A DNA stretch of 63,991 nt, filler included, from Sphacelaria rigidula (GCA_964200075.2; 3 parts of 3 records of this genome joined end to end with filler, not necessarily neighbours in it); one strand, 5' to 3'. Shown: positions 6,365 to 58,356, counted from the first letter of the whole stretch. The notes: generated by a model from the sequence alone, not told the origin. Program-made: numbers and translations.

Positions 6365-6404
<40 letters not shown>

Positions 6405-9491: not shown

Positions 9492-12400
9492 TCACCTTTT
9501 GTGCCGGAACTCGGCCGAAGTAGTCGCTGCAGCTCTAGCACTACCAGCAGCAGCAGCAGCAGCGGTAGACGTATTCTTCATCGGCGGAAACACCACCAAT
9601 CCCAGTGTTGATCCCGCCACCGATGCCGACGCGTCCATCGACGACAACCTGCGCTGCTTCGGTTGCATAGTAGTAGTCGGCTCGTTCTCTGGCCGCATCA
9701 ACTGCTGCTGTGGGTGAGAGGAGGAACAAACCGAAGAGTTACAAGGAGATCCACAACAGGCGCAAGCTTCTGCTCCTTCTCCTTGTCCCCCCCGTCCACT
9801 TCCCCTGCCTTGCCCGACCCCATCGTTGTTGTCTGCGCTACCGAGCGTCTGCCTGGCAAAGTCGACGGTGGATGCGGTACCAACAAGAGAGGAGGAACTC
9901 ACATGCCGCCGGTGAAAGCTGGGTAATGGCGATGATGACGGTGATAATGGCGGGGCGGTGGTGACGGCGGCGGCGGTCCTCATCTTGGGCGTGCCTTCGC
10001 CGCCGCAAGGGACACAGGCTGGCATCGAGTTGGGCCGAATCAAGGAGCGGACGAGCTGGTCGGGTGCAGGGGGCGAGGCCCGCGTGTTGTTGTGATTGAC
10101 GAGGCCGCAGCTGACCCCGTCACTCACGCAGGCGTGTTCTCCCCCTCCAACAACGGGACGGCTCGGAAACTTACGCTCGCCTGTCGATGTCCGTTCCATC
10201 TTGGTTCGTATACGGTCGTACTCTTGTACTGACGTGTAGTATGTCGGAGGAGGTGCGTTTTGGAGAAAATGCCACAGGGAGAGAGGAAAGTAGGAGCAGG
10301 GTGGGGTTATTCTGGTAGGCTACGTGCTACATGCTATACGAAATAGTGAATTGTGGAGAACAAATGCTTTCGTATTTTTTCCCAGGTCTTTAGCACTCTT
10401 GCGTGGCGGATTGCTTGTTTCCCAATAAGGGGTGCGGAGGAGAGGGGGTGCGCACACAAGGCTACGAAACGTGGTAAAACTCCAGCTGGCACAAGGAGTG
10501 AGGGTTCAAAAAAGTAATTCAAGTGCTGGATAATTCAATGGCTCTCCGGCCTCATCGCCATGTAGGTGAGTATCACAGTGAATCGCGTCTGTCGATCTTG
10601 CCGACGACGTACAAACGTCGTTATGCAGCTGGTGCAAGTAAGATACACACGGAAAAAATAGGGAGCAGATAAGAAACAAGGAACAAGGAAACGACAACGC
10701 TTCCCCCCCCTTCTCACCGAGTTCCGTCCGGGTCACTTGTAATTGCGCCGCGAGGACCTCAAAGTCCGTCTTGCAAAGCGGCGATAACAGCGCTCGCCCA
10801 CTCCATCGTCCGCTGCTGCCTCTGCTGCCGCCGGCCAACCCGGTGTTATGCGGAAAGGATCCGTGAACGCTTAGCTCTGCCTCCATGTGGTAGTTGGCTA
10901 TTTTCGTGAGCAAAGCGTGTACCTTTTGTTCCAGTGCGGGCAAAGAAGGCGGAAAAGAAGAGAGGTGTTAGGAGAAAGAAAGAAACATTGTCGGCTTGGG
11001 TGCCGGCGGCAGGAAGCCGTTCCATGAAGATATCGCGGGGTGGAGTGGGTTGATAACAGCGTGCATAACCACCTTCTGTCTGAGTCCTTCGTGCAAAATT
11101 ACCCACCACCGTGTCACGTATACGTGATACTGTAAATATACGGGATCTACAAGTACCGAGACGTAAGACCAAGGAAAATGATGACGCGATATGATACGCT
11201 TCTATCCTGGACGCGCCAAAATGTTATTCTCTGCATAGCTTTCACCTGAGAGTGAGTGGCCGGAGGGATCGTTACAAGTTCCGCCACCTTTCGACAGCGG
11301 TAGTGCTTTGTAAGGAAGGGATGTTGCAGCAGCGCGCAAGCAGTTGGTCTATCTGCGGGCTCGCGCTGCAACATGAAGTCCACGAACTCGCACAGCTCTG
11401 GGGTAAAAGATTGGCGCGGGAGCGTCGGCACAGGGTCGTTGGCGATCGCCTGCATCATCTCGAACACTCCGCCATGAGTCGGGAGAGGGAACTTCCCGAG
11501 CGCAAGAGCAACAATCACCTGTTGCGTTTTGTGGTGTTTTTGGCGACAGTATTCGTCATGAACAACTTCGAAACATGAATGAGATACATTCTTCAGCGGT
11601 ATTTCTTGCAAATTGAGACCTGGCATATTGTTGACTTCTAAGCCACCAAAAAGCCATCGTCAACGATCCGTCCTCCAACGGCGGCGTTTCCGTGCCGCGT
11701 ACTACTTTTACGTGCAAACGTGCGCATACATCAGAATCCTCACCAGGCCAAGGCTCCAGATATCGCTTGGATACGAATAGTCTTTGTGAGTGATGCGCTC
11801 CGGACTCATATACGTAAGGGTGCCCGTGAACGTCTTAGCGAGGGAGCCTGTGCTGGTAAGTTCGCGCACAACGCCAAAGTCTGACAACTTCACGCGCCCA
11901 TGCTTGTCAAGGAGGATGTTGGACGGCTTGATGTCGCGGTGAATTTGATGCTTGGAGTGCATGTCCGCAAGTCCGCGGAGCACCGAGCGACCGACGGCTG
12001 CAAGCGCTCGCTCGGAAAGGGCCTCCCCGCGACTCACAAACTCTTGCAGAGTTCCGCCGTCCATGTACTCCATCACCATGCACACGCTCCCGGTCTCCGT
12101 TTCCGTGTACGCGTCGTGGAACGCAACGATGGGGAGGTGGCTTAAGGGTACCCCCATGCACCCGCCGCCACCGCCGCCACCGATACTGAAAGCACTCGCG
12201 TGTCTTCGGTGGCACTTGTAGTGGTCCTGCTGTTGACCGCCGGGAGTAGCGGCGGAAGCGGAGGCGGGGGTCGACGCGGTATAAGTGTTCCTAACGTCTG
12301 AGCCGAAGCCCCAAGTCGATTTTGGGCTGCTGCGCGTGTAACTGTAGCTGCTTCTGCCCGACGGGGGAGTGACCGTCGCTGTGGCCGGCGTAGATTGCGC

Positions 12401-15400
12401 CCCAGGAACAGGTGGAAGGGGTCCCCCCGACCACTCGGTGTTGCCGGCGAGCTTGCTGAGGAATTCTTCGTCTTCGACGCTGCTCCACGAGCTCGGCGTG
12501 GGACTGTTCGCTTCTTTCTCGTGAAAGTTCCAGCTCTCCACGCTGTCATGATCCCGTCCATCACCGGCACCCGTTGAGGAGTAGTCCTCATCGCCTCGCC
12601 TCCCCGCCTTCGTCCCAGCCCCACCGCCGAAGAGGTCAATTTGAGCAGCAGGAACTAGCGGCACCTGTGCATAATGATTAAGCATTGCGAGCCAAAAGTA
12701 CCCGGATCGACAATCAATTTAGGTGTGCAGCATTCTCCCAACATTAGTCGTTTGCATGAATTTACGAGAAACGTAGTTCGCGGCCGCTTTCTCGTCAGAA
12801 TGTTTTTCTGCGCTTATTCAGCGTATATCATTTTTCTCGCACGAATTTCCCCCCCGGTGGATGAAGCTCTCCCATAAGCTCAACCCTGACCCTACAACAT
12901 CCGATTGCCCCTGCCCACCCGCTTCTACACCCAGCCCGCGGACATCTACCGCACCACCTGATACTCACCCGAGCCATGGAATTCAACGTCTTGAGCTCTC
13001 GTATGAGTTGGTTTCGCTTTTCATCGTCGTGCACCTGCATGATCTTGACCGCTACCAGGCGCATGGACGGCACATGTAAGGCCTTGTGCACGGTACCGCC
13101 CCCGCCCCTCCCTAGCTCCTCCAACAAAATAGTTGTCTCGTTCATGCGGCGAGCCACCGTTGTGGTCGACGGGGGCGGAAGGTCTCCCCCGCCCGCATTT
13201 TCGCCGGCGTTGCTGCCGCCGCCCCACCCGCCCCTGCCTCCACCACCGTGGTCCTCGGTGGCGCCGGCGTCGGCGGCACCGGGAGCCAAGCGACCGCCGA
13301 TGCCAAAGCTGCTCTCGACGCTGCAGGGCGGCTGCTGTTCCGACTCGAAGGCTGTCGCAAGCGATCGAGGCCGCGTGCTGCCGCTGCAGCGGCCTCTTTC
13401 CACGAAAGATGTCTTGCAAGTCCGGTGTCTGCCGCCGCTGCCGCAGGAGGGACCTGCTGCAGTTCAGAATTCGTGCGGTATGACGCATTGGGTACCGTGG
13501 AACATGCAGTGAAGATTGAGATGGTGGTGGTGGAGCTCCGGGGTTTATCAAGACGAGCTGAGCATCTATATCATACGAAAGTGCCACTAGAAAGGTGGGA
13601 GGCCAGGGTTCGGTGATTTTGCAAGGAGTGCAGGGCGGGACATGTTCCCCTCGGAGCGCACAATTCACGGTTTACTGGCGGTTTCAGTCTGCAAAAAAAA
13701 GGATTCAGCAGGACAGATACAACACGAAGACAGCATTTTTCTTACCTGAAAAGTGGGTCGGGGTTGGCGCCGATCTCATGCCGTTCTGATCGAGGACAAA
13801 GCCGTCAATCTCCAGCGTTCCGCTCTCACTGAACTGGTACGATTGCTCCAGCGATGGGGGCACCGGAATACTCAGCTCGAGCGAGATTCCCATGATATCA
13901 CTAGCACCGCCACCGCTCCCGTCTCGACCACTGACATCGCTAGCGCAGTGCACTTCGCCGTTGGCGTGACCCTTATCCCGCGACGGGCCCATCTTACGTC
14001 GTGATACAGCCATGGACGGCGCACCAGCCTCCTGACTTGCCCACCCCACCTTACCCGGTTGATCCACCAGTCCAGATGCATAGATATTGTCCGCTGGCCC
14101 GTTGGTTGTATCCGCCGCCACCAGAGATTTATGACAACTGGCAGTGTGGATGCCCTGGAGATTTTTCATGCGTCTCAATCCCAATGAGCGTCCGCCACTG
14201 CGGTCTCCTTGATGGCCCGTTTCTGACGCGGCCATATCCGTACCGAACTTGCTGGCATTATTACCTGGGTAAGAAGCAGCTCTTTCCAGCTTGCCCGGCG
14301 GCGCTCTGGGCCTGTACTCTGCTCTCAAATGATCAGCAGAGGCTGCTGGGGCGAAGGTGGAATCCATCACCTTTAGTAATCCCGGTACACGGGGGAGCTC
14401 TCGCCCACTACCATCACCATCATCACAACCACAAACACCAACAAAACCACCACCGCTCCCGCTCCCGCTCCCGCTCTTGTGGGTACCACTGTTGAACTGT
14501 GGAGACAATATGTCACTCGAAAACTCGCCGGACGTTAACACAATTTCGGAATCCTCCGAAATCCTTTTGTCCCAAAAGTCTTCTTCTTCTACTGTTGTCG
14601 GTGAAGCCGGTGGCTTGCCGCCGTCGTGCTGATGAGGTTGTGTTTGCTCGACTCCCCTCCCTACCCCTCCCTGCCCCCAGCCGCCGCCACTTAAGTTGCT
14701 TGTGCGCCTAACACCGAGTAGGCCTTTCTTGTTGTGTGCCATGGTTTGCGCCGAAGAGAGCGTTCCGACCTCTGTGCGCTTGTGATGTTGGGGCTGACGG
14801 TAATGAAGATGATCGTGAGGCGGCTCCGCCCTGGACGGTGCTGATGTCGGCGAGCCCTCAACATCGCCATTGGTAGTATCACTGACACGGAAAGTTGACG
14901 CCGGCGCTATCGCGCCGGACAGTTTCGCCAATAAGTCGCTTCCTTCCGTCTCTTGTACTGCGCACGATTTTGTCGGCACTGTCGATGTCGGTGCTACTAC
15001 GGCTCGCTCGGAAGTCATCGACCGAGACACCACCGCTGTCGTTGGCCGTCCCCCCGGATTCATGATCGTTGTGGTAGCCGCCCGGTTCGGCGTGGATGGC
15101 GTGGATGGTGATATCAGCGGTGACCACACGGCACCGTTGGATATAGTGGACTTTGGCTGCTGTTGGTACTGCTTCAGTCCAGCGGTCGGGTGTTGAGGTG
15201 ACATCTCTTCGTTGTATTCCTGTTTTTTTATTATTATTGTTGTGGTTGGTTGTTCGCTTGCACATACTGTTCATTGTTCGTTCGACCGAGAACGCTAACA
15301 AGCACGAGGTTTGACCATCATGAACGGATCGAGTTCATCGTATACTCCGGAGCACCAACTGCGGTACGCCAAAGGGCTGAAGTAGAAAGAACCACTCAAT

Positions 15401-21304: not shown

Positions 21305-21404
21305 NNNNNNNNNNNNNNNNNNNNNNNNNNNNNNNNNNNNNNNNNNNNTTAATTAATTAANNNNNNNNNNNNNNNNNNNNNNNNNNNNNNNNNNNNNNNN
21401 NNNN
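21305..21404. other. Assembly gap with TTAATTAATTAA linker
   Basis: N-run with an embedded all-frame-stop linker. Confidence 0.95.
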
Positions 21405-25960: not shown

Positions 25961-26290
25961 AGCCGGTCGCCCCGGTGGCTCAGCTGGTAACAACCTCGAA
26001 ACCCTTTGACGGCCGGGTCATGAGTTCGAATCTCGGTGCAGTCGTACGATTTGGATTTTTTTCTCACACAATGCCCAACAGTGGATAGCGTCTATGTCGT
26101 GGGTACACAGAAGTGGACCCAACGATCGACGAGGGAAGGGGAAGTAACGAAGAAAGAGGTGGAAGGAAAATGAAGAAGGAAAAACTCCTGCGTCGGCCCT
26201 CCTCCTGTGTGACCCTGGCTAGTGCGCCCACATATACCGGAAGCTTTAGACCAGCGTCCAGAATAGATGGGATGGCAATACACACACACA
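25961..26290 (+). mobile_element. tRNA-derived SINE, copy 1
   Basis: A-box TGGCTCAGCTGG, B-box AGTTCGAATCT, conserved body and (CA)n tail. Homologous copies at 27338, 52180, 53731 and 58063. Confidence 0.8.
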
Positions 26291-27337: not shown

Positions 27338-27680
27338 AGCCGGTCGACCCGGTGGCTCAGTTGATGAATTCGAAACCCTCTGACGGTAGGGACGTGGGTT
27401 CGAATCTCGGTGAATTTTTCACGATCTGGGATTTTATCCCACATCATGCCCAGCAGTCGAGAGCGACTATGTCGTGTACACAAAATCGACTTCACGTTCA
27501 ACGAGGGAAAGGAACTGCTGAACCGATAAAAGTCAAGACAAGCATCGCAGAAGGAAGGTGGGCTACTAAAACCAAAGAAGAAAACTCATGTGACCCCGGT
27601 CGATGCGCCCACATATACCGAAAGGTGTAGAATGGCGTCCAGAATATATGGATAACACCACCCACACATACACGCACAAA
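27338..27680 (+). mobile_element. tRNA-derived SINE, copy 2
   Basis: agccggtcgacccggtggctcagttg...ggttcgaatctcgg...ggcgtccagaatatatgga...cacac tail. Confidence 0.8.
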
Positions 27681-28606: not shown

Positions 28607-31600
28607 ATGGATGACGACTTTTTCAAGTCTCTGGTTCCGAATCCATATGGTGACGCCTGGATCCGTGCGCAACAGACCGAGGCAAAGCTCTATCTTAGCA
28701 TGCACGTTTCGCCACATGTAGTCAACTGGATTAAATAGCCTGAGAAAACGGTGTGCATTGTTGCGGCGAAAATCTTTCCGGTTGGTCGCCGATACCTCGA
28801 AGGGATCTGTTATCCTGTTGTCTATTTCAACGATGAGCTATTTTCTCGTGTGGTGATGATGAAAGAAACTCAGAAAGCTGGAAGAACTGCATCGTTGATA
28901 TATACATGTATATTATACCCAGGTTAGGTCTTCAGACAGCTAGCTGCACGCGTCTGCAAAACGCATCCTATTCGGAGACACACTCAAAGAGTGTCGATTT
29001 GTTTTTTGCGCGTTTTTCGTCTACACTATTGTATGCAGAGTATGAAAGGATTACGTTGAATGCAGTCGAGGAGCGAATTCTTCCCCCAGACGTACGTATC
29101 AAGATCGCGGTGGCCCAGGCCAACGCGGGTGATTATGGGCAGGAGAAGATGGAAGCCGATGTAAGAGAATTTGCTTGGGCAATTGTCTTTTGTTCGTTTT
29201 TTGTCACGATATGTCTTTCGGTTCGGCAAGTACCTTTCCAGTATCACGCGAGGGACCGCAACAGTGTTTGCCAGCAAGATGCCGTAGCATCTGTAGGACA
29301 GCGATTCGTAGACCGGGGTAGGTGTGTTTCTGTATAATACTTTTGAAATGAATTTGCCTGCCCCTCGCGCAGCACTACGGTTTGATGGAAGCCCCCCGCA
29401 TATATGTATAGACAACAGTCATGGACAAACTGTGTGTGACTTTCTTCAGATGGAACGATGAAACGTTTTGGTTTTTATTTTCGATTATTCAGCCGTCTTG
29501 AGTGTGCAGTGAGTTGCCGCGGAAGAGTTTTTCCCGAATGATGTTTATTTTTAGTCTGCTTCTGCTTGAGTGTCCAGTATCTACGATCCTCTTGTCGATG
29601 GTAGCCATGTTTTTACTGCGATTCACTGCACGGCTACCGAGACAGTATTATGTTCGACATACGCTCATGTCGGTTATCGGCCTTTCCATTTCATTGAAGA
29701 CAAATGTTTCCCGGGACGAATCCCCTGCGTGTTCTTTGGTGCCGGGTCATCATTTGGCGGGAGACGTTGATAGTGTGTTAACGCCACATATTTTGATTCA
29801 CATTTTTTTGCTCGCCGTACTGAAGGTGCTTTTGTTTGCCTCTCTGTACGTCTGTCTCTCCGATTGGTGTCTTATATTCGATTCCATAATGTTCTTTTTT
29901 ATTCACTTTTCTTCAGAGAGTGTTGGAGTGTTTTTTTCTCGGGCAAGTCCATCCTGTCACCACGGCTGGATCCCTGCGGGATCTGTTCAAGTAGTGCGAT
30001 AACCTGTAGATCAATGGATCTGTGTCGTCTGTTTTTTTGTTTCGCTCCCAATTTTTTGTCCTCTCACCAACAGATGAAGAGACTAGACAGCTTGGTGCGA
30101 ACGCTGTCGCTCTATGGCCTCTTGGAGCGAAGGTCTATGGAGACGTCCAGGTGCGAGTTGTCGTCATTTATAGTATTGTCGTTCGCTCAGCCGATTTCAG
30201 GCCGCATCGCAGCTGCTGCGGAGTGACCGAGATGTTATCTCTTGTTCCAAGAGCAAAGTGACGTGACGAAGAGTGAAACGCCCGATTATTGTTCTACACC
30301 ACATGCAGAAAAACATACTTGTGCGGGAAGAAATTGCGGTTAGGGATCGGGGACAACGCTGGGTGCTGAGTTTTGTTGTTTTCCTTTTTACTCGGAGCGT
30401 TTGTCCCCCTGGTAGCTCGTAGGTGAGGCGGTTGCAGTTGGCGAGAGGGCATGTGCCCTTGTTTTCTTTTCACCCCTTCGTGTGTGAAGTGTCTTGTAAG
30501 GTAGGAGCTCATCAAACTTTCGAAGCTGACTTATTTCTGTCGATGACTGTACTCGCTGTTATGGGTCTCAACCGACCCCGCCCCGACTCATCGTACTCTC
30601 TGCAGGTCGGGCGACCCTCTCGCCCCCGACCGTGTGCGTGAGCTCGGGAAAATGTTGGTGGCGGCCGTCCAGCTTGAGCTTTTCCAGATGTTGGACGAGA
30701 TCTGTGAGGCCGGAGACGTTGATAACGAGCTGTTCGATGACTTGTGTTGCGACACGATTCAGGAGGGTCGACGCAATGGTTTCGTGCTACTCACGCTGGA
30801 GCAGCTGATTTCGCCTGGGTCAGGGTACAAGCGTCTGTTGCAGATCCGGAAGGATCAGGTGTGTGTGACTGTGTGTGTGTTTGTGTGCAGAGTTTTGGAG
30901 CTTTGTTGTTGTTGTTGTTGTTGTTGTTGTCTTGTTGAGGCGGTAGTGTGGGAAGCATTGGATTCAACTACCCTTGACCACCTGAGTAGTCAGCAAGCGG
31001 TACGTCAACTTCCGCCGCCGGAGAATCGTATCTCCACGTGTTGTGGCCCTGTTGTGTGTGGTCATTTCCCAGCTTCATAGCAAGTATGAGCGCCGCTACC
31101 TACCTACAGGTACCGGCATGTCCTGTGCGATCACACCGCAGGGATGATGTCTTGCCCTCGAAGACTGGGCATGCCCTTGGACGCCTGGCACGGGCAGTGT
31201 TGTGTCGCTGCTTGCTCGCGTCAACGCCCATGAAAAGTATATACGAGGCTGATGACATGTAGTGTGCTGCGTCGCAGTCATCGCGCGCACTCTTGCAACT
31301 GAGTGTACGCACTGCCCTGCTGCATCTCAATGGACAAACACATGCGCTATTAACAGCGCTTCCATGCGCATGATGTGAGGATTTTTCTATTCTGAATGTT
31401 CCATCCGGAGTTCAGATTCACCTGTGAATGCGCACGACCACCGACGGCTGTTAAAGTACGAAGATTATTGTCTACGCCTTCCTCCTCGCCCTGCAACGCC
31501 GTGCTATTGTCCAGTTTGTGGAGGAGATTGCAGATGTGGCGGGAATCCGAGGTCTGGCCGGGCACGACTGCAACAAATCGCCGACAAGCTCTGAAGGCAG

Positions 31601-34600
31601 CGTACCGGGTACGTAGTTCATTGACTTTGTTGTAGAAAGAGCCCATTTCCCCTGTACTGGAGGGTGGACTGTACACGAAGAGAGCTTGGCTTGGTTGGTT
31701 TTGAGGAGTTGTCAAGCGTATTCCGCGTTTTCTGCGATACTCTCTCCAAAATTCGTCCTTGAGAAATTAGGGAAGGGTAGGAGCGAGAGTAGTGACATGA
31801 AGCAGGATTCGAAAAAAAGTGTCGGCGGGGAGAGGGGGCTTGATGGAGTCTTGTTGAAGCTTGGTCGAGAAGCTGACCTGCTGACATATGTGCACAAAAA
31901 CTCTATCCAACCAGTCCTCTTCATTGTTGCGCACAAGAAGTGAACAATGTTTTTTGCCTTGCAATGTTGCAGTAGTCACATCACGCGGCGCGCGAGGTCA
32001 GAAGGAGAACCGGGTGACTTCGGCAAGATGAAACTGTTTACATCAACCTCAACATTTACTTCGTAGCAGTGTGAAATAACTCTGTAGCCGCAGCGTCCGT
32101 CTCCTCGTGGAAGAAAGATCCGGTAGATCAGCAAGCGATCCCCTTCCCTCCTCCCCGCTTGGTTTATGGTCAAACGACTAAGGCAAGCGACAACTGAGTA
32201 CATACCCCCCCAGCCCGCTCCCGCCCCCTTCAGCGCTCCGTCTCGAAACGGATACGTGGTCGATGATCAAACGACTGAGGCAGGCAATGACTGAGGATGC
32301 CCCCTGCCCCCACGGCGCACCTATGAAGCTTATTGCTCCAATTTTCTGATTTCTTCTTGGGCACTCTTCGTTTATTCCCCCTTCGCTTCTCTGCTGGTAT
32401 GCTCTTCGTCTCTCGTCATTTTTATGCAGGTAAAAAAAGAGTGTTGTACAGTGATCGCGGCTCGCCGCCGAGAGAATCTAGCCCCCACCACGTCAGCAAC
32501 AGAAATGGCAACACTAATGGTAGGGGTCACGACAACGGTACGAGTCGCGTGAACGGCAACCTGTCGCCTTCTTCGCCGTCGGGCCACCGTCGCACACACA
32601 CGGATCGGATACGGGAACTCCTCAGCAGGGTCGACGGACTCGTCGATGATGTTGCTGAGGACCCCGACGAACAGGAGAGTCTCAACGCTGGTGCCGACCT
32701 ACCGCCACTTTCCCCCTCGGGGCTTACTCTGCGCGCGAGCGGCAGCGGTGGTGGTGGCGGCGACACCTCGAGCATCCGCAGCGGCACCCGCAGCCATCGC
32801 AGTGGGGTTACCATGGAAAGTAGCGGGGCGCGGGTGTCTCTCGGCGATCTTCGACCCACGTCGTCTTCGAGGAATGGCAGCGAAACGTCTTCGCAACTGC
32901 CAGAGGACCCGGAGCAGAGGACGTTTTTTGCTGACGAGAGCGAGGCGCACCCTTGCTCAGACCCATTCACACTGGCGGAGGGACGGTTTCATCCACCAGT
33001 ACTGCCCAAAGAAACGACGAAAGAGACTCGGTTATTGTCGGAAGTGGATTGGCTCATCGCGGGAACGATGGCAGCACTGGGGGATGAGGCCGAGGAGCTG
33101 GGCGCGTCGTTGACTCCCGACAAGAACGGCGAACACGGCGCGTCGCCGGAGGTTGCGGGCACGTCTGAGCGTGTCGATATGGACGGTGAAAGCGTGCCGG
33201 AGCGTGATGCTTCGCCGGGGCGAAGAGAAGTCATGAAAGACTCTTCGTCGCAGGCTCCGACAGCCGTAGTAACGGACCAGGAGGACGGCGGGGAGCGGGG
33301 GAGTGAAGAAGAGGTCGGCGGATTGCCGTCGCCCCCGGAGAGGAAGATGATCATGGAAGCCGCGAAGGAGGAAATAGTGTACAGTGGTCAAATGGAGAAG
33401 GTGGGTGAGTTGAAGATCGGAGTCAAACTAGCTCCGCCCGAAGTTGATGTCACCGAGGACATTTCCACCGGGGGCGTGTGTTTTTCAGGACTAGGCATTC
33501 TCTGAAATATTTTGAGGCTCTCCTGCCATAGGACAGGTGGTCAAAGGCGCGGCGGCAGCGATGCCTGAGGCTGCCATCAAGGTTGAAGTAATCACGGCCG
33601 AGATCGGTTCTGTCGAGGAGACCTCGGTCGCTGACGTATTTGTTGCAGACAAAAGTTTTTCTGAAAATAATCTTGGCGCTCCCTCTGCAGTAGAAATAAC
33701 CGAGGCGGTGAAAGCGGTGGCGGTGTCGGGTGAGAACGTGTCAGTGCCAGTCGAGGGGAGCGAGTCGGCGTGTGCGATCCCTATACAGGCTGGTTCACGG
33801 AACCCCCCCCCAAAACACTCATCAGCAAAACTTCACGCCGTTTTGGAGAGTTGGACCCTGAAATTTTGCACAGGTGTTGTATGGGTCATAACGCAACCTT
33901 GTTTTGACGAGTTTTTTTTTTTTTTTACCTTTTTACTTTTTTCACCGTTTTTCCGGGGTCCCAATTTTTTCGAGAGAACTTCGATCCAGTCGGACCCCCT
34001 AAAACGATGGAGAAAAAAACCCCTCCTCCATACAGAGTTCCAGAATGACCCATAGCACACCTGTGCAAAATATCAGGGTCTAATTCCTTGAAACGGCGTG
34101 AAGTTTTCGCTTTTGTGCGATGAACCTTGCCGTGCCACGGTGAACCGGCAATCTACTAAATTTTAGTATGAAAATGGTGTTTTTGGGCCTTTTTCGACGT
34201 GAACATGAAAATTCAAGCACCAGTTAATCGAGTTTGGCCACGAAACTGTGTGGGGTTCTTCCTTGGGTTTTGCGGCGGCAGAGCGTTCGCGAAAAAAATG
34301 AAAAAAAGACTGTAGTGCCGGTTTTCCGGGGTCCCAAAATGGATGACTTCGAAAAAACGACTTGGATCCCGTCGGACCCCCGAAAAACGGTAACAAAGTT
34401 CGAGAACTAGAAAAACCTAGTTGATCGAAACTTGCGTAATGATTCATAGCACCTTTGTGCGAAGTTTCAGGATCTAACTCCTCCTAGATGCGTGAAGATG
34501 TGCGCGTTTGTGCGAGGATGTGAGCTCAAAACGTGCAAGCTCCTAACTACTTGGTTTGAGTATGAAAACATCTTTTGGGTTGAATTTTACGTCAAGGCGG

Positions 34601-36560
34601 AAAAAATCGTATGAGATTTTCGAGTTTCTTCAATAAAAATTGTACATGTGTTCCTTGGACCATCCTGGGACGCATCATGTTATTTTTTTTCTTCTGAGCC
34701 ATTCTGGACCGCCTTTCGGGGGTCTGTACTGGAACCCCCAGAAGCGCGCAGAGAACGGAGAAACTTCGAACCCTTGCCAAGAACACAATATTTCGGTTTG
34801 GAGCATCAATACCTACGGAACTGCCAAGTTTGAGGATGATGTGAGCTTTTCTACAACAGATGTAAGGGAAATCGTCACGAGACTTCCTGGGTCTTTCCTG
34901 CATATCATGAGTGGAAATTAGACGACTCCAAACTCCACATTACCGAAACATTACGATTTCGGGTATAATTCTACCCTGTTGGAACCGTTTTCAAATCCGT
35001 TTCTCCCGTTGGATTCTTGAGGTGATGACGGTTACTACGATTTGAAGCATGTGGAGATTCGGTGGAAAATGGGCCTGGAGTTCGTATTTTCAATTTCGGA
35101 ACAGTTTGAAAGGCGCTGATTGGTCGAGACACATTCTCGTTCATAGCGCCACCGCTATAGCCTTTGAAAAAATCCGGCTATGTCACCCTCTTCGTCTGTT
35201 AATTGCGGTCAGTATGATACCATGTATGCCGCTATTGGGTGCATATTGCAGAGAGCATTTGCTGATGACAAAATTCGTTTTTTTTTCCGTGAACCAGCCT
35301 GTATATGCTGATGAAATACCTGCAACAGTTTCTACGCTTAACTCTCACGACAGTTCCTCCAATGATGATGGCACACTCGTTCCCGTTGAACTCAAGGATG
35401 GATTTGAGAACGAGAGTTTTGCGGCGTCTTCGTTGGAGTCTGTTGATGGCGACCATCGCGTTGGAGAGGAGGCGGTGCGCGTCGAGGGAATTGGTGCTAG
35501 CCAGGTTTCCCGGGAGGAGGATCCCGCACCCGCCGCCGTTGTTTCTCACGACCCGATTTTGATGGCACAGGATGATGACGCAGCCTCGGACGTGGCATCG
35601 ATAGGGCAAAAAGAAGAGGATACGAACGGCGATGTTGCTCGCGACGGGGAAGTTGTGAAGAACCCACCGGCGAAGGCAGGGCGCATTAATGAGGCTGTGT
35701 CTACGTCGGCACACAAAGAAAAGAGCTATGAAACTACTTCCTCATCCCTCAGTGCGCCCGTCGTGATCAAAGAACCAGAGCCCGTCGCGAAGGCCACGGT
35801 AGCGGTAGAGACAAAACACGCATCTCCGGAAGAAATTTTGATGACACAAGACGATGATGCGGCCTCGCAGGCGGCGTCCGTTGATGGCCAAGATAGCACC
35901 CAAGTCGACTTCGGCGGTCGTCAAACGGGCGACATTGCACAGGAGAACCCCGCCCATCTCGATGTGGAAGGTCACTTGAAAGTGGAAGGAGAGTGTCAGA
36001 CGTGGTCTGCGCATGACAGAGAGGAGGTGGTGAAGGTTTCAAACGTTGTCGCAGCTTCTCTGGATCCGAGGAAAGAACAATCAGAGCAGGAACGGTCACA
36101 ACCAACTTCCAGGGATACGTCCCCGGAAAGCTTCCACTCTCAGTTGCAACAGTCACGGGAGTCGCATCACATCCCAAGCACCGCCGAAACCCGAAAGGCA
36201 ATGGGATTCCACTCAGATTCGGCGGAGCACCTTGAGTTGCAATCGCGGGTTGGCGGTAGAAGCAACAGTAGTAGTCTGAATGGAGATGACCGTCGATTGA
36301 GAAAGGAGCCGGTCATTACGGCGGGCATTCTCGCTTCTGAGACACGACGAGGGGAGCAGCAAGGTGATGACGGAAAGGACGGTGGAGTGGGCGTGACAGC
36401 ATCATCTGCGGCTACGGGCAGCAACGGCGTCGTGGTACCAAATGGAGACCATGGTAGTAATGCCGGTGATGGTGAAGGTGCGAGGGGTGTCGATGGTGAA
36501 GCGCTTGTGAGAGAGATTGTTGATTTGGCCGACGTCAGTTTGGAGGACGAGGCAGAGTGA
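28607..36560 (+). CDS. Hypothetical protein (~1093 aa): folded-looking N-terminal ~260 aa and a long acidic low-complexity C-terminus; last exon interrupted by a TIR element
   Basis: Exons: 28607-28681 (GC donor), 28739-28922, 29039-29160, 30074-30150, 30606-30858, 31515-31608, 32430-33400, 33537-33785 + 35304-36560. Phases are mutually consistent. The 5' end is provisional and no domain was recognised. Confidence 0.7.
32162..32310 (+). repeat. Dispersed repeat family X (ggtcaaacgactaaggcaagcaac...ccccc), tandem pair
   Basis: The same motif occurs at 51750-51935 (+, x2) and 63920-63991 (-). Confidence 0.75.
33786..35301. mobile_element. Non-autonomous TIR DNA transposon (TA TSD, Tc1/mariner-like), 1516 bp, inserted in a coding exon
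   Basis: TA|caggctggttcacggaa ... ttccgtgaaccagcctg|TA. It has an internal inverted repeat (about 33827-33890 vs 34046-34108) and repeated ttttccggggtcccaa / gtcggacccc motifs. No transposase ORF was recognised. Confidence 0.9.
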
Positions 36561-39036
36561 TTTTCAGAGTGATTTTTTTTTTTTCTATATTTTTGAGACG
36601 CAGCCTACAGTGAAAAGGGACATTTCGTGCCCGCCGTGTGGCCTCGTGGTGGTGAGTTCAGGTCATGCAGCGTTTCTGCTTTTATTTTTCTTCTTGCGAC
36701 GTGACGCATATCTCCGACTCGCCTGTTTACGTGTCTCTGCTGGATGGGTGTTGGAGTGTACGTCACTTGTGACGTCTCGTGAGTGCGAGTTGGTATTGCC
36801 GAAGTGCGAAGTGTGATCGGGTTACAGTATGTGAGTTGGCCGTGGCTGGCGATGTTTCGAAGTCGAGGAGACGATATTATGAAAATATTCGAAAGTACTG
36901 CTTGTCATCGCCTGTTCGGTGCATGTCTGCGGCAGTGATGATACAGGTGCACGAGTGATGTGTGGGTGGGTGGTTCAGCCAAACCCAGGCTCTAGATGTA
37001 ATTCAATATTGTTTCAATCGGATTGCTGTGTTTCGTTGAGTGTTTATTGTAGCGTGTTGTCGTTGGACGTTTAGCCTCTTGTTGTGAGAGGGGAGGATAT
37101 GAGGTATAATGATATAACTTGTGAATGAGAGTTTTCCTGCGCAAGATCGGCAAAATCCTTGACAAAATGAGTATTTCAGATTTTGTCGGACGGGTATGTC
37201 TAATTTGTGTTTGCCTTTCCAGCGCCCAGGGGGTTGGTCTCTAGTTGGACTTTAGCTGGACGGAATATTAGAGGGTGGGGGTATTGCTTGGTTTCAGGGA
37301 AGAGACAAGACCTCCACGGCGATGTAAAGCACTATCCAGTACCACTACCATCACTCAAACTACGTATCGACAACAAAGCCACCCGTAGCAGTGAGGGTGT
37401 GCGGGTGCAGTCATCATGATGATACTCAAGGCGGTAGTATACATGGGCAAATTGATCAATCGAGCACGAAGGAACTACAGTAACTGATGGTCATCTACGC
37501 CCGGTCTTGATGAACCATTCCTCAAGATATAAGGCTTGATCATCTGTCATGTGTGGGTCTAGAAAATATGTGTATTGACGTTTATCGTCCCCCTTACGGT
37601 ATTTTTGTGGTGCAAAATCGCGGAATCGACGAAACACGTCAACACTGTTTACGCTCGGAGTTCAGCAGAAACATCAAATGGGGATATATGCTGAGTCTGT
37701 AACATGAAAACGAGGTGTGTGTTGGGGGGGCATTTTCGCCTCATACGGCCGGCCCATGCGCAACAGAGCTTCTCTAAAAACATTTCTCATACCCTCGTAG
37801 CGCGAGATTAGCAGACGTTCATCGGATGTGGTATTTCTTCCCCTCAAATACCTTTTCTAGACGGGTGCAGACTACCTGACTTTGAACAACTTTTTGGCCT
37901 CATGTACTTCATGCAGTCGGCGCGCGCCCCTACGACCCAAACCTCATGGCACCCTGAAAATGGATGGAAATTCCCCGCTTTTTGACAACTGAACGAAGAC
38001 TATGACCAAACCTGGCGAGCATGTTTTTCCGTGAACAAACTTTTGTCCACAAACAACTGTCGGTAACTTCTCTCACTCTGGCACTCCAAAGGTGGTTTCG
38101 CCGCACTCCATGATCCGGGAGAAGATATTCCGCATACTGCATGGGAACCCGAGTAAGATTTTCCGGCAAATCCGAATGTGGGCATACAAGCTATCCCCCC
38201 GGACTCCAATTTCACGAAGTGTAATTGGTTTCTGCTGCGGGTAAAACTTCGACTCTCCGTTTTTTTTCTTTTTCTTGACTGCATCCACCCAATATAAATG
38301 ACTGTCAGGACCTGAGAGAAGGTGGCCGCTTTGGGTACGGTTAAAAATGCGGAGATACCGTCGAACAGCAATACTAAACCTTTCTGGGATTGGCATCAGG
38401 CAGTCCGTGGAGAACGGAACAGAAGTCGACAAGTTATCGTTCGTATTAGAAAAAAAAGCGCATGAAATGCTTTGCAGGCTGGAAAACACGTATTTTCATG
38501 AAGAATACCTTCGTACCCCCATTAGTGTTGTATGCGGTTGTAAGAACTCTACCGTAGTACATCAATACCTGGCGGGGGGACAGGGAAGCCGTCCTCCCTA
38601 AGGTCTTGAAAGTCGTTCAAACTAGGTGGATGTAGTTAAGAAAAACTAAACTGTCTAGCTTTCATACCTGTTGCGAACTTCGGTCGGGAGTAAAGTACGG
38701 TAGAGCAACGAAAGCTAGCTATGATCGGGTTTGCCTGCCGTACTTCCGACAGCGTTGCGTAAAAGCCACAAGACCTTCGCTGTCGGCGGTTGATGGCGTC
38801 GGTGTCAAATGCAACGACAAGGGGATGGCCGTAGAGCATTCTCGTCCCAGCTTGTAATGCATGACCTCCTCACATCGGAGTAACTCTGGAAAGCTACTCG
38901 TACTGTACAGAGGTGTTCACGCGACCAGCGTACGCTCCAGATTGCAGCATGGACGGACTCCTATGCGCCACGCTAGGAACAGTCAAATCACCACCGTAGG
39001 TATCTTTTTTCACTCCCCATGTCAAAACGGTCTCTA

Positions 39037-40566: not shown

Positions 40567-41269
40567 CAATCACAACATTGGTACAGGAAAAAACGTACCC
40601 GATAAGCAAAACAGCTGCACACGAATTTTGACCACTCAACAGTGTAGATGGTGCTGAGGGCCTGTCTTACGGCCCGTCTTAGCACATCAGTTCTCGATCG
40701 AAATTGTGCGGTGGAAAACGAAAATCCCTATCTGATAGGCTGTGATTTCAACCGTCTTCAAAATTTTCGACAATGGTTGATATTATGGCCCATCAGATCG
40801 GAATTTTTGTTTTCCACCGCATGATTTTGATAGAAAACTGATGTGCCAAGACAGACAGTTTGGTTTCCACTGTACCTCTCCGACCGAAAAATGATGTGCC
40901 AAGAGGTGGACTGAGCGAACGAGCACGCTGACAGCAAATAACGGTACGACAGACACCAGACACCAGGTAACGATCGACTGTTCGTGACTACGGCTTGTCT
41001 CCCCCGTCTACATCCCGCTCCTCTTCGCGTCCCGAGGCCTGTACACACCCAGCATTTGCCGCATTCGCATAGCTGAGGTAGTCTCGTCGAACGTGGTGGC
41101 CGGCTGAACTCATTTAGGTGATCTTCCCGTTCACCTCCTCCTCCAACACGGTGCCTAACGTTAACCCTTCGGGGACTTAACCCTCAGGGGGTGCTGATTT
41201 TCGTTGTGAATCGGCATCATTTTCAGGTTTGATGCCGATTCACAAAGATTCACGAAACAGAAAACAGCA

Positions 41270-42702: not shown

Positions 42703-42802
42703 NNNNNNNNNNNNNNNNNNNNNNNNNNNNNNNNNNNNNNNNNNNNTTAATTAATTAANNNNNNNNNNNNNNNNNNNNNNNNNNNNNNNNNNNNNNNNNN
42801 NN
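42703..42802. other. Assembly gap with TTAATTAATTAA linker
   Basis: N-run with embedded linker. Confidence 0.95.
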
Positions 42803-43020: not shown

Positions 43021-43453
43021 ATATAACACGGGATCTTACAAATTGGGGATGGATATTTTATTGGGGATGAGAAACCCGGAGAATTAAAATCGTATTATCC
43101 ACACCAAATCTTCGAAGTCTGGTTCCATTTCTTCATCTACTGATGGCTTTTGACAACTGCTACACGCCATAGAAATTCGCATTTCGATCACCGAAATGTT
43201 GGGGTCCTAGGTGAAGAAACAATTTCGGAACCATTTTGGCGTCCGTTCGCACACCCCGAATTTCCCGAAATTGTTTTTCACCTAGGACCTCAACATTTCG
43301 GTGATCCAAATCCAATTCTTCAGGGCGTGTAGCAGTACTCAAAAGCTATTAGTAGGTGAAGAAATGGCACCATGTTTCGAAGATTTGGTGTAGATACAAA
43401 GATTTTTATTCTCCGGGTTTCTCATCCCCAATTTGTGAGATCCCGTGTTATAT
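43021..43453. mobile_element. Foldback (near-palindromic) MITE
   Basis: atataacacgggatcttacaaattggggatg ... catccccaatttgtgagatcccgtgttatat, with arms of about 200 bp. Confidence 0.85.
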
Positions 43454-44514: not shown

Positions 44515-47500
44515 CTATAGGGAAAAGTCACTCTCTGCGTCTTCCCCCCAGTCTTCTTCGTAATCCGTCAGGTTCCCATGATCCCAGTCACCGTCCAGCA
44601 GGCCAAGTTCCTCCTCTTCATCAGCTCGCGCAGTACTGTCTTCGACCTCTTCACCGTACAGATCAAGCTTTATCACTATCACCTCACAGCCACTCGGTAT
44701 CTTGCCCGTAGAGTTACCCAGACCGTGAGTATCCACTAGGTAAAGACGCTTGAGAGTGGACGGCCATACGACGCCTGGAAATCCATACGAGACAGGGGAG
44801 GGGGGGAGGGCTGATGGTCTCGCATGCCGCAGTGATATGACCAATGACCTCGCATCCCTACAAAGCCAGGACGGAGCACGCCGGGTTTTCGCCTGGCCAG
44901 GCTCGCAATCGGTCACCGAGCGCAAATCGCCGTGATGTGTTCCGCGATTCACATGAAGGATGAGCTACATCCTGCCAAGATTGTTCGGCCCAAAGCGACT
45001 GATAATCTTGCATATGCCAGGGGGGACTGACACACACAAACCTATTCCCGTACACTTGGCAGTAAACTGTAGGATTGCGTCAGAGCGGCCAACGTATGGA
45101 AGCATAGGTCGGACAAGAATGTTTACGTGGACTGCGTTGATGTATAGTAGCACAAGGTTGTGCCACGTCACGGTGACGGCAGCGATTGGGCCATTTTGTG
45201 CGCATTTACCCACGTGTCTACAGCATACGACAAAGCTCGCAGGGGTATGCTGATGATTAAATCCACGCTACTTTTAAATGGTCCTTGATCTTCCATGTGG
45301 GAAACATAGGAATGAAGCTGGCTCAGATCGCACTCAAAAAGAATGTTCATGAACCCCAGCTACGGTACGCATCATGCTTTGCTTCCCTGAACCAGGTTCT
45401 CTCGCGTATGCACCGGGCATCACCACGAGCAGTGACTACGCTGCCTATACCGCAAGCTAAACAAAAATATCCTACATACCGCATGAGACCTTCATCTTCC
45501 CGCGAATGTGAAACGAAGCACCACACACGGCGAACGTTTCGCTTCGTGTACGAATATCCGAGTAAACATGCCGACACACTTCTCACGAGCAAATAGCGAT
45601 GCTCGAGTTTGCTCTCGAACGCTCCGACCACACCGGTACAGCGCAGTGGTGCACCCGGGATGGGTTGGCATAGTGAGAAGCCACGATCACCCGCCTTGTT
45701 GCTAAACCTGTCTTGTTATGGGTGACGTCGACCATTGTGGAAGTCTTTCAAACGTCGGACGTATCATTTTCTATAGGATGCGGGTCATACAGCTCAAGTG
45801 TGAACACACCTGCGTACCCGATTCGGGTGATACGGTTCAACTAGTTATGGAACGGTCCTCGTGATCCGGATATCATCGATCAGGAGGGAGGTATCTTGTA
45901 CGGGTTATAAGGATACACAGGTTCTTCTTGACGCTTCGTGTACACCTGATTCGGATTACACAGGTGTGGCCAAGATCATGTACGAATACTCGGGTCATAC
46001 AGATCATCATCAGACATATATGTACGAATCACACGGGTAATACAGATCATCATCAGATGGATATGTGCGAATCGTACGGGTAGTACAGGTCATCATCATG
46101 CAGATATGTACGAACCGCACGGGTCATATAGGTCATCATCGGACTAGCGCCAATAAATATACGTACAGTCAACATACGGACTTGTGAACATGCACTTTGT
46201 ACCAGGGCCTTACGGGTTGGCAGGTGAGGATTACTGGATATTGTTTTTTGTATACTTCATTTGGATGCGCCGACAGTGCACATCTTCAGAAAAAATATGC
46301 AGCTCTACCGTGGAACGACCCGGAATAAAATATCCATACTTCATGTTCCATATGCCCGGGTTGCTACAGCCAACATACGGACTTGTGAGCATGCACATTG
46401 TAAGAGGGCCAGGTTAGCAGGTGAGGATTACTGAATACTGTTTGTTGTGTACTTCATTCGGATGCGCCGACAGTGCACATCTTCGGAGACCATTTGCGGC
46501 CCTACCATGAAACCACTTGGAATAAAATATCCGTCCTTCATTTTCCATTTGCCCGGGTTGCTACAACCAACGTCCGGACTTGTGAACACGCGTTGTACCT
46601 GGGCCATACACGTGAACAGGTGAGGGAGCTGAATATTGTTGTTTTCTTGAATACTTGATCCGGATCTCACGGGTGCGGTAAAGGGTAACTTGTACACTAG
46701 ATTCGGACCCCACAGGTGAGGGGTAGCTTTTGGTGTACATGAGATTCGAATCGCACGGGTCGACGAAAAGCTACTGCGCTTCCCTGACTCGAGTGATATA
46801 TATCACAATTATGTGAGTTGTACAGATGGCACGGGTCTGCAGATCAGCTGTACAGAAAAGTGTGTGTGTGGAGCGAGTCATACAGCTCGTCGCCCGGCAA
46901 ACGTGCACGGGTCAAGCGGTTCCTACGGATCAGCATCGGACAAATGTGTACGAGTGACAGCTCACCCCGGACGGATCATGATTTATGCCTCAAATGAGCT
47001 GACCCGGATCTGTGACGAGCTGATCCGTCCGACGTGTGAAGTCTTTCTATTATTCGAGTTGCAAGGAGCCCAAAACACCTTCTGTAGGTTGGATCCAAAC
47101 AATGAGGTCGAGTTGCAAACTTTCTGTCGGCGTTCCACATGCAGCTACGAAATATGCGGAAAACGGCGGGGCATATTATTCATCAACCAATACGGCCCCC
47201 GGCCCCATCCCGAAACTAGCTGTACTCTGTGGCGACAACATCACAACCGCCTGGTGTTATCATGATCATCTCCAAGAAAGGCGAAGCCACACCTGCTGTG
47301 CAATATAGCCGTCGTGTGAACAGGTCTGGGACTGTGGGCGCATTGAACTGCGTGAACACGAGCAGAAGTGCTCATTTTCGAGGGTGATCCCAACGCACCC
47401 TTTCATCCTTTCACGATAACATGACCCACCTTGCAAAAATGAGCGCTGAAACTGCTGACCAAAGCCAACCTCGCGGAGTTGGCTCGGCCAGTCTACGTCT

Positions 47501-48411
47501 TCCACATCCTGATTGAAACCATCCGAGAGCCACAACGTTCGCAACCCTGGGGGTAAGTAGGTCTCCGCGCCGGCGATTGGGGAATTGAATAAAGGGGGTG
47601 CAACACCGAGGGGCACAGTATAAATGCCCCGTTTGCGTTCATTGATATCACTCCTTTGCAAAAATTCGAGCGTCTCAAGGCCGGCCGGCCAGCGCGCGCC
47701 CTCAATCGGCTGGGTGAACGCAGGCATCGACAGCTTCTCCAGCCCAGGGGGCCACTCCACATTTGCTATGGATCCGTCGAACGTGAGCCCGAGATACAGC
47801 TCGCGTAGTCCAGCGGGCCACCAGGGTGCCATCCCAACGATGGAATGTTTTACCCACGGGATGGTGAACGCGTCGCCGAAGCTCAGGCGTGTAAGAGTCG
47901 TTGGCAAGGAGATATCTATCAAAGGCACGCTCAACTTGGTCAGATGTATGCACTGCACTCCCACCGGCCATTTGGGTGTACACCTTAACAGGTCCCCGTA
48001 ATTCCACTCAAGATCCAATGACGAAATCCTCCTGTATGGCAGCACTCGCGAGCTGTTAGTTGTACTCGCGCCACTGCTGCTTCTGGCGCCAGCCGTGGAT
48101 GCAGTCACAGGAAGGGCGGAAGGCGACTCGGGACATAGCGTGGGGTGCACAAGCGAATGGGGGGTTCTGCAGCAGACCCTGAGGAATGGCAGCGAAACAC
48201 CGTCACGGAATGCGTTGCAGAGGGCGAGGCACGTGGCATGCATCTCATTGCCTCTGTCCTCCGTGAAGATACTTGAGACCACTGCGACCTGGAGGGCGTT
48301 CATTGTTACATGATGTTGCGGGGGTGGCCGTGGTGATACCGGCGGTTCCTTTTGGCTGGAGGGACCAGGCAAGGTCTGCTTGTAGTTCAAGGCCGCAGAT
48401 TTACGAGACAT
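44515..48411 (-). CDS. FNIP-repeat (LRR-like) protein, 2 exons, 413 aa, acidic C-terminal tail
   Basis: Exon 48411-47430 (caag|gtgggt) joins exon 44774-44515 (ttccag|gc), both phase 1, giving ...FGQQFQRSFLQGVVWPSTLKRLYL... Repeats: FDGSIANVEWPPGLEKL, FTQPIEGARWPAGLETLEF, FNSPIAGAETYLPPGLRTLWL, FNQDVEDVDWPSQLREVGFG. Confidence 0.82.
45979..46143. repeat. Degenerate minisatellite, ~43 bp x4 (intronic)
   Basis: tgtacgaat.ac.cgggt.atacagatcatcatcaga..tata units. Confidence 0.8.
46170..46655. repeat. Tandem repeat, ~200 bp x2.4 (intronic)
   Basis: Units start at 46170, 46371 and 46568 (caacatacggacttgtgaacatgc...). Confidence 0.85.
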
Positions 48412-48704
48412 CAGTTCAGCGGGAGGGAGGGCAGGGGCGGATCATCGACACCTTGAGTTCCTGACGATAGTTGCGAATTTACATTTTATACACTAGACTC
48501 CATGGGATATAGTCTACTGTCGGCATGTGTTGACTACTGATGGTGATGCCCCCGAAGACGCGGGAGGCACTGTTGGAACGTATCTATCCTACCATACCGA
48601 TTATGACCCCCCCCGCTACCCATCCCCTCCCCGAACATTCTCAGCGGAAAGGGGGTGCTACCCGATGTGTTAGTCATATTGCGACCAGACAACAGTGCAC
48701 GGTC

Positions 48705-51749: not shown

Positions 51750-51935
51750 TCCATCTCGATAGGGATGCCTGGTCAATGGTCAAACGACTAAGGCAAGCAA
51801 CAAATAAGTCCCCCCCGCCCCATGTGAGTACGCCCCCTTCCCCCCCACCCACAGTCCGTCTCGGAAGGGATGCGTGGTCAATGGTCAAACGACCAAGGCA
51901 AGCAACGAATGAGTACGCCCCCTCCTCCCATCCCC
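51750..51935 (+). repeat. Dispersed repeat family X, tandem pair
   Basis: gggatgcctggtcaatggtcaaacgactaaggcaagcaac x2. Confidence 0.8.
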
Positions 51936-53730: not shown

Positions 53731-54107
53731 AACCGGTCGCGCCGGTGGCTCAGTTGGTTACCTCAGAACCTTCCGACGGTTGGGTCGTGGGTTCGAATCT
53801 CGGAGCGATCTGGGATTTTATGTCACTCAATGCCCAAGAGTTGAGAGCGACTATGTCGTGGGTACACGAAATTCGCTTTGATGGTCGACGAGGGAGAGGG
53901 ACTGCTGAACCCCTCTCGCGATAAAAAAAAAAAGGCAAGCACCGCAGAAGGAAAGTGGAGAATTAAAACAAACAAAAAAGAAAAAAAACTCCTGCGTCAG
54001 CCTTCCTCCTGTGTGACCCCGGCTGGTGTGCCCACATATACCGAAGGGTGTAGACCGGCGCCATAATAGATGGGACGGCAACACACACACACGCACACAC
54101 ACATACA
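53731..54107 (+). mobile_element. tRNA-derived SINE, copy 4
   Basis: A-box TGGCTCAGTTGG, B-box GGTTCGAATCT, (CA)n tail. Confidence 0.8.
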
Positions 54108-58062: not shown

Positions 58063-58356
58063 AACCGGTCGCCCTGGTGGCTCAGTTGGTAAGCTCGAAA
58101 CCTTATGGCGGTTGGGTCGTGGGTTCGAACCTCAGTGTAGTCGCACGATCTGGAATTTTATCTCACACCATGTCCAACAGTGGAGGGCGATTGTATGTCA
58201 TGGGTAGACAAAATTCGACTTCACGGTCGACGACGCAAAGCGACCGCTGAAACGCTCTCTCGATATATAATGCGGCAAGTACCACAGAATGCAGGTAGAG
58301 AACGAACACAAATAAAAATATAAGGACTCCTGTGTTAGCCTTCCTCCTGTGCGACA
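58063..58356 (+). mobile_element. tRNA-derived SINE, copy 5 (3'-truncated)
   Basis: aaccggtcgccctggtggctcagttggtaa...gggttcgaacctcag...ccttcctcctgtgcgac. Confidence 0.8.

Follow-up and report, generated by a model that had tools for sequence, protein, structure and literature searches.

Introduction

Exonic insertions of Tc1 in C. elegans were reportedly removed by splicing through latent sites, an observation attributed to Rushforth and Anderson in 1996, and the Ds and dSpm alleles of maize are reportedly further classic cases of exonic transposons spliced out via such sites. Here we describe a 1516-bp transposon located at 33786-35301 within a protein-coding gene (the host gene) of a 63,991-nt window, this being the whole stretch of DNA analysed, filler included, made up of three parts from three records of the Sphacelaria rigidula genome GCA_964200075.2; all positions are counted from the first letter of the window. 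We consider it likely that this transposon inserted into a coding exon and that a host donor (33400/33401) and a latent in-frame AG acceptor (35396/35397) now bypass it.

Several described systems offer points of comparison. A transposon, according to Yenerall and Zhou (2012, PMC3443670), may 'activate nearby latent splice sites', and the same text describes a route of intronization that passes through a premature stop and latent splice sites. Introners, as presented by Gozashti et al. (2022, PMC9860276) and Mikina et al. (2024, PMC11282704), account for the entire intron, with a splice site or both sites derived from the element or from its duplication, and the mRNA is usually left unchanged or has few codons altered. 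In PMC9860276, an operational rule requires that similarity within the family start at most 5 exonic or at most 10 intronic bases from both intron ends, and the reported medians of introner families range from 30 to 654 nt.

Results

The element and its terminal repeats

The element (33786-35301, no strand assigned) contains 20 stops in the host frame and is bounded by perfect 17-bp terminal inverted repeats (TIRs), CAGGCTGGTTCACGGAA at 33786-33802 on the plus strand and its exact reverse complement at 35285-35301 on the minus strand. The two repeats match at 17/17 positions, and at 21/21 nt when the flanking TATA is counted. When up to 3 mismatches were allowed, the 17-mer gave 3 matches in the window against 0.20 expected, a number that was reached in 0 of 100 shuffles. 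The junctions read cctata/CAGG...CCTG/tatatg, and the target-site duplication (TSD) can be read as TA or as TATA. TA was chosen because only the removal of the element with a TA (1518 = 3 x 506 bases) keeps the flanking frames in register; its left and right copies, both flank sequence and unstranded, lie at 33784-33785 and 35302-35303. Removal of the element and one TA fuses the two flanking open frames in phase, the left flank ending ...SACAIPI and the right flank starting YADEIPA..., and the open reading frames (ORFs) 33516-34055 and 35046-36560 share one genomic frame, interrupted by the stop at 34053-34055.

A preliminary description, made from the sequence of the window, had reported the perfect 17-bp repeats with their TA duplication, the in-frame fusion SACAIPI-YADEIPA and a stop at 34055, all of which are borne out by the sequence and by the agreement of the frames. 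The splice-like signals that it had pointed out are also present. The right TIR contains a phase-0 AG (35296-35297) behind a T-run, after which an exon would start at codon position 1, and the left TIR contains the candidate GC donor CAG/GC (33788/33789, phase 0); the addition of Q-P-V that would follow from joining the two had been computed correctly. The TIRs can pair as a 21-bp perfect duplex of -39.5 kcal/mol that spans both the AG and the GC site.

The ORF listing of the window holds no ORF longer than 115 aa inside the element, and a Pfam search at E up to 0.1 returned 0 families for the 4 scanned of its 10 internal ORFs of at least 60 aa. The element is single-copy in the window, yet internally repetitive: a palindromic sub-unit with 95-nt arms, 78% complementary, occupies 33827-34107 (unstranded) and recurs as a second partial copy at 34318-34518. 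A 2-bp TA duplication marks the Tc1/mariner superfamily, to which the element was tentatively assigned because of this duplication; the autonomous partner of such an element would carry a DDE/D transposase of that superfamily. Perfect TIRs, the TA duplication, the lack of a transposase among the ORFs searched and a high abundance (see below) would fit a non-autonomous TIR transposon of the Tc1/mariner type.

Abundance of the repeat family

Contigs from four public runs were placed on a stretch of about 6 kb at >=85% likeness; two of the runs are DNA-like (X1 and X2) and two are RNA-like (X4 and X7). The whole stretch received 15,457 contigs from X1 and 15,482 from X2, nearly all of them on its repeats. 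In X1, 833 contigs were at least 99% alike to the stretch, 2,651 lay at 95-99%, 6,685 at 90-95% and 5,288 below 90%. The flanks of the element were covered by single contigs at a depth of about 26-33 in X1 and 66-95 in X2. By comparison, the summed depth on the element reached 38,336-153,285 in X1 and 70,074-288,809 in X2, roughly 1,000 to 6,000 times that of the flanks, a summed contig depth not being a copy number. Because this excess is a thousand-fold or more, the element family is very abundant and diverged. The DNA-like runs also contain joints such as 34107->35281/35283, with 22 other letters in between, which show shorter relatives in which the left part is joined to the right end, as expected of non-autonomous derivatives. 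Exact scans for a TIR 21-mer in public metagenome contigs and for a TIR 19-mer in viral contigs both returned 0 matches. An exact scan of metagenome contigs with an internal 23-mer of the element (one N) likewise returned 0, and the three scans yielded neither further copies nor an autonomous partner; a full-text literature search for the TIR string gave one chance match, in an irrelevant paper on duck herpesvirus.

Splicing across the element

X4 and X7 were taken as transcript assemblies because they carry two GT..AG joints that have no match in X1 and X2 and because their depth falls to zero over the unique portion of intron 1 of the host gene (31701-32102), against 107-166 on the exons. 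The first joint, 31607->32429 (cut +1), skips the 821 nt of intron 1 (31609-32429, GT..AG, on the plus strand like all parts of the host gene described here) and is found in one contig of each run, at a depth of 106.7 in X4 and 163 in X7. The second, 33397->35394 (cut +3, GT..AG), skips 1996 nt and with them the whole element. It is carried by one contig of X4 (depth 165.6, short side 26 letters) and one contig of X7 (depth 163, short side 255 letters) and by 0 contigs of X1 and X2, and in both RNA-like runs its depth equals that of the flanking exons.

The present-day intron delimited by this joint (33401-35396, 1996 nt, GT..AG) contains, from left to right, a stretch that resembles a small intron, a segment A, the element and a segment B. 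The element begins 385 nt after the start of this intron and stops 95 nt short of its end; the acceptor 35396/35397, which is 95 nt past the element, is part of the host sequence. Because 33400 ends a codon and 35397 starts one, the spliced message is in frame, minus 114 codons. Past the element, the AGs at 35327-35328 and 35352-35353 are out of frame, and that at 35395-35396 is the first in-frame AG outside the repeat. The strain that gave the RNA carries the insertion: an RNA-like contig of low depth (33372-33878, depth 5.38) is unspliced through the small-intron stretch and segment A and continues 93 nt into the element; a second unspliced RNA-like contig covers 33418-33759 (depth 5.3). Among the 15 joints listed of 488, none had its end at 35298 or its start at 33789. 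Nor was the empty-site joint 33785->35304 present among these 15, contigs being a record of presence and not of absence.

These observations bear on the splicing scheme of the preliminary description, according to which the element brings its own acceptor, used from the donor after 33400 or from the GC donor of the left TIR. The GT donor after 33400 is indeed usable and is used, in both X4 and X7, but it reaches 35396/35397 in host sequence and not 35297/35298 in the element. The GC donor 33788/33789 is not used in any of the 15 listed joints and is read through by the contig 33372-33878, and the splice that is observed removes 114 former codons instead of adding only Q-P-V. That description had left the choice between a tolerated, spliced-out insertion and a truncating allele; the in-frame joining across the element agrees with the former, and not with a silent or simply truncated gene.

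Coding signature of the bypassed flanks

Upstream of the element, the exon 32430-33400 ends ...GQMEK in phase 0 and is covered by RNA-like contigs with 0 other letters. Downstream, the exon as spliced today (35397-36560) starts DGFENE... at codon position 1 and ends with the stop 36558-36560. Between these two exons lie segment A (33537-33785, 83 putative former codons, open in frame) and segment B (35304-35396, 31 putative former codons, whose last two bases, 35395-35396, are the acceptor AG in use), both now intronic. Taken together (114 codons, 342 nt), A and B are free of stops in a single frame, the one connecting the two exons, and only 95 of 20,000 shuffles of the same letters were open. 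G makes up 54% of their first and 9% of their second codon positions; the corresponding values are 45% and 22% for the RNA-supported exons and 22% and 28% for intron 1. When these two exons were used to train a codon model, A and B received a log-likelihood of +20.7 in frame versus -41.7 and -56.7 in the other frames, and segment A alone +19.1 versus -31.4 and -23.5. The joint score was matched by only 0.06% of 16,456 control windows of 342 nt taken from both strands of the rest of the window, controls that include the exons of other genes.

By the same measure, the stretch 33401-33536 looks noncoding, with a per-codon score of -0.17 to -0.34 in all frames. Its 136 nt give exactly the +1 shift between the frame of the upstream exon and that of segment A, and the upstream exon's own frame meets a stop at 33503-33505. 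It begins with GT, ends with AG and is in phase 0 at both ends, and may be the remains of an ancestral small intron. Because the flanking 342 nt score strongly as coding, the element appears to have landed in coding exon sequence, on evidence that is statistical and not comparative. In the simplest earlier structure, one exon would have ended at 33400 and a long one begun at 33537, with a phase-0 intron of 136 nt between them.

The pieces of the host protein are acidic and of low complexity. The downstream ORF had 0 homologues among 1.84 billion representatives, none of 600 candidates scored when segment A was compared with longer proteins, and Pfam had no family for two pieces of the host protein. 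We propose that the host gene is a lineage-specific gene for a low-complexity acidic protein, and such a protein plausibly tolerates the loss of 114 residues.

Both junctions of the element are crossed in X1 and in X2 by contigs of flank depth (32172-33837, and 35185 or 35168 to 37500), and X1 has other letters on the flanks that are absent from X2, for example at 31834, 33543 and 36127. From these letter differences and the junction-crossing contigs it follows that two or more genotypes with slight differences between them, sampled in two studies, have the insertion in common. That the TIRs are still perfect and the frame of A and B still intact argues against an ancient event.

The host gene and other features of the window

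The exons of the host gene include at least one ending at 31608, 32430-33400 and 35397-36560, and the X7 contig, 4,338 nt long, extends past the placed stretch. RNA-like contigs cover only 96 letters before the donor of intron 1, and an AG at 31513-31514 precedes an open, in-phase stretch upstream of that donor; there is probably a small upstream exon at 31515-31608. Because of this AG, the open in-phase stretch and the 96-letter cover, the gene probably extends beyond 31500 in the upstream direction, with one or more further introns.

Intron 1 itself holds a short repeat, some 67 nt long and carrying a C-rich tail, present as two adjacent copies at 32140-32303 and again at 51750-51921. It is more abundant than the transposon, the bin 32103-32303 having a summed depth of 325,805 in X1, 583,402 in X2 and about 23,000 in the RNA-like runs, and many loose contig ends at this repeat run into poly-C. 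Elsewhere, poly-C tracts of about 30-40 C adjoin a 10-N gap at 6342-6532.

The window is rich in repeats overall. A dispersed family of 3 to 5 copies (25996-26270, 27338-27651, 53731-54074 and 58063-58355) has a head with tRNA-like box motifs (GGTGGCTCAGTTGG ... GGGTTCGAATC) followed by a conserved body, and from these motifs we take it to be possibly a tRNA-derived short interspersed nuclear element. ARAGORN and Rfam scans of the window returned 0 and 0 hits, with no tRNA at the copies of this family. Long near-palindromes with arms of 71-171 nt, 78-97% complementary, occur at 43060-43432, 1173-1539, 40669-40859 and 3595-3777 and look like foldback elements or elements of the miniature inverted-repeat type. 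Away from the locus lie a split protein-kinase gene on the minus strand (11147-12718; Pkinase, E 1.9e-41 for 11708-12718, the domain's C-terminal part being encoded in 11147-11659) and an ORF at 47266-48441, also on the minus strand, with an FNIP repeat match (E 1.3e-06). An atlas search with the kinase returned only generic clusters of eukaryotic kinases, and Pfam scans of 10 further ORFs were likewise uninformative as to the taxon. Finally, two runs of N (21305-21404 and 42703-42802), each interrupted by TTAATTAATTAA, are probably artificial linkers; the window would be composed of three pieces, the present finding lying on the one at about 21405-42702.

Discussion

The likely course of events at this locus can be set out as follows. 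A non-autonomous cut-and-paste transposon of a very abundant family would have inserted into the coding part of a host exon, at a time when the exon ending at 33400, the small intron 33401-33536 and the long exon from 33537 formed this part of the gene. The spliceosome would now join the native GT donor 33400/33401 to a latent AG, 35396/35397, inside the old exon. A single GT..AG intron would thereby take out the former small intron, the transposon, and the 83 codons before and 31 codons after it. No new intron would have been made in this way; an existing intron would have been enlarged from a presumed 136 nt to 1996 nt, the transposon supplying no splice site used in the transcript seen. Why the signals of the element are passed over may be explained by pairing of the TIRs in the pre-mRNA, which could hide its AG (35296-35297) and its GC (33789-33790). 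If several AGs were tried, mRNA surveillance would leave only the in-frame product at steady state. Use of the old acceptor at 33536 would expose the 20 in-frame stops of the element and make the transcript a target of surveillance.

Several points weigh against this account. The status of X4 and X7 as RNA was only guessed by the run index, both belong to one study, and each contributes a single joint-bearing contig. The unspliced contigs of low depth retain the 136-nt stretch, and there is no RNA joint for 33401-33536 alone. Moreover, Logan contigs drop rare variants, 473 of the 488 joints are unlisted, and the element's AG, or the old acceptor at 33536, may be used at a low level. The acceptor in use has the poorest pyrimidine tract of the three compared, with a pyrimidine fraction of 0.60 over its last 25 bases versus 0.68 for the element's AG and 0.80 for intron 1, and its choice is accounted for by inference only. 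Segment A gave no local alignment with the rest of the host protein, and no empty-site allele or orthologue was found, the old exon structure resting on sequence statistics only.

The explanation that survives best beside the one we favour is that the acceptor 35396 existed before the insertion as an alternative 3' splice site and that the element, by landing in an optional part of the exon, merely abolished the long form without altering the splicing itself. We hold this to be unlikely, though it has real points in its favour: the short form is in frame and abundant, length variants are plausible in a low-complexity protein without a Pfam family, and the state before insertion is not visible, no relatives having been found. 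On the other side, the acceptor 35396 looks weak. The strong coding signature of A and B is compatible with an alternative site as well, and the observations made here agree with this explanation as they do with recruitment of a latent acceptor.

It is improbable that the element is introner-like and is spliced by its own AG at 35297, from the GC donor (only Q-P-V being added) or from the upstream donor (only segment A being lost). The AG at 35296-35297 is in phase 0, preceded by a T-run and a possible branch site, and a splice from 33400 to 35298 would keep the frame as well; introners that carry one splice site are established (PMC11282704, PMC9860276), and with contigs that drop rare variants and most joints unlisted a minor form could have been missed. 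However, the only joint across the element among those listed ends at 35396/35397, at full exon depth in both RNA-like runs. The GC site is read through by an RNA-like contig, both candidate sites lie inside the 21-bp repeat duplex, and the element ends are 385 and 95 nt off the intron ends, outside the rule of 5 exonic or 10 intronic bases.

A very improbable explanation is that the element simply inserted into an old intron of 478 nt whose flanking frames are open by chance. Transposons in introns are the common harmless case, and the first intron of the host gene likewise harbours an abundant repeat. Against this stand the 114 codons open only in the linking frame (95 of 20,000 shuffles), a codon score reached by 0.06% of the 16,456 controls even with the exons of other genes among them, a composition by codon position that is exon-like and unlike that of intron 1, and an in-phase GT...AG intron of 136 nt exactly where a change of frame is needed. 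That the element is cut from the RNA by spliceosome-independent, SOS-like splicing triggered by repeat pairing is barely credible: perfect TIRs can pair and such pairing triggers SOS splicing according to PMC12779559, but the junctions of SOS splicing are reported there to vary, to be often non-GU-AG and to lie within the repeats or close to them, whereas the joint seen here is GT..AG, uses the native donor and lies 385 and 95 nt from the repeats.

In a speculative extension, which we consider doubtful, the family would act genome-wide as an 'exon-eating' expander of introns, the paired TIRs hiding the signals of the element while host sites and surveillance pick the in-frame outcomes. An exonic copy would then push the spliceosome out to the nearest usable host sites. 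If this were true, introns would grow and exons be lost in a manner different from that of classical introners, which are spliced at their own ends, and the present locus would represent a recent case in which the codons that are bypassed have not yet decayed. Some copies of the family might also be true introners through the AG behind the T-run.

Whatever the behaviour of the family, the locus provides a natural snapshot of a transposon hit in a coding exon that was apparently survived, an existing intron being stretched over the element and 342 nt of coding sequence. Events of this kind have been put forward as one means by which introns lengthen and exons shorten, and with the bypassed codons still intact the event can be dated and tested. 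It also calls for caution in the search for introners: a TIR/TSD element with an in-phase exonic acceptor is insufficient, and junction data decide.

Comparison with known systems

Like the introners of Micromonas, Aureococcus, dinoflagellates and others, the element is a non-autonomous TIR/TSD transposon of a high-copy family. It lies in a gene of a microbial eukaryote that is aquatic or associated with algae, and it does not appear in the mature RNA. Introner families form introns in many genes through many similar copies; for the present family it is the abundance that is shown. Unlike introners, the element forms the inner part of an intron and supplies no used site among the 15 joints listed of 488. 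With 1516 bp it exceeds the reported family medians, and 114 codons are lost if its flanks were coding. Introner identity was tried by the operational rule and rejected, the element ending 385 and 95 nt inside the intron 33401-35396. Of the introner-like event that the preliminary description had proposed, what stands is a TIR/TA transposon in coding-like sequence; what falls, for the transcript seen, is the claim that the element brings its own in-frame acceptor.

The SOS splicing of C. elegans and human cells (Nature 2025, PMC12779559) shares with the locus a DNA transposon with pairing TIRs that is absent from the mRNA of the gene it hits. It differs in its junctions, that of the locus being GT..AG, formed from the native donor and far from the repeats. 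Intronization is closer in outcome. As in that process, 342 nt of apparently former coding sequence are removed as intron, an in-frame product survives, and the forms that include the element's stops are open to mRNA surveillance. The difference lies in the trigger, which here would be the insertion of a transposon and not point mutations, and in the fact that sequence is added to an existing intron.

Splicing of exonic transposons through latent sites offers the nearest parallel. Here as there, a TA-duplicating TIR element in an exon adds stops and most mature RNA lacks the element; sites in or beside the element are used in those cases, and the product is imprecise but in frame, as it is at this locus. 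By contrast, the locus uses host sites at both ends, the donor being the native one of the preceding intron, which would have grown by 1860 nt. The latent-site cases are laboratory mutants, whereas the locus is a natural allele present in two genotypes of a wild microbial eukaryote and would have lost 114 codons. With flanks that carry a coding signature, a GT..AG joint and a frame that is kept, it matches the spliceosomal removal of an exonic transposon via host sites. The locus adds to this class a natural example of transposon-driven conversion of exon to intron, and no new kind of mechanism.

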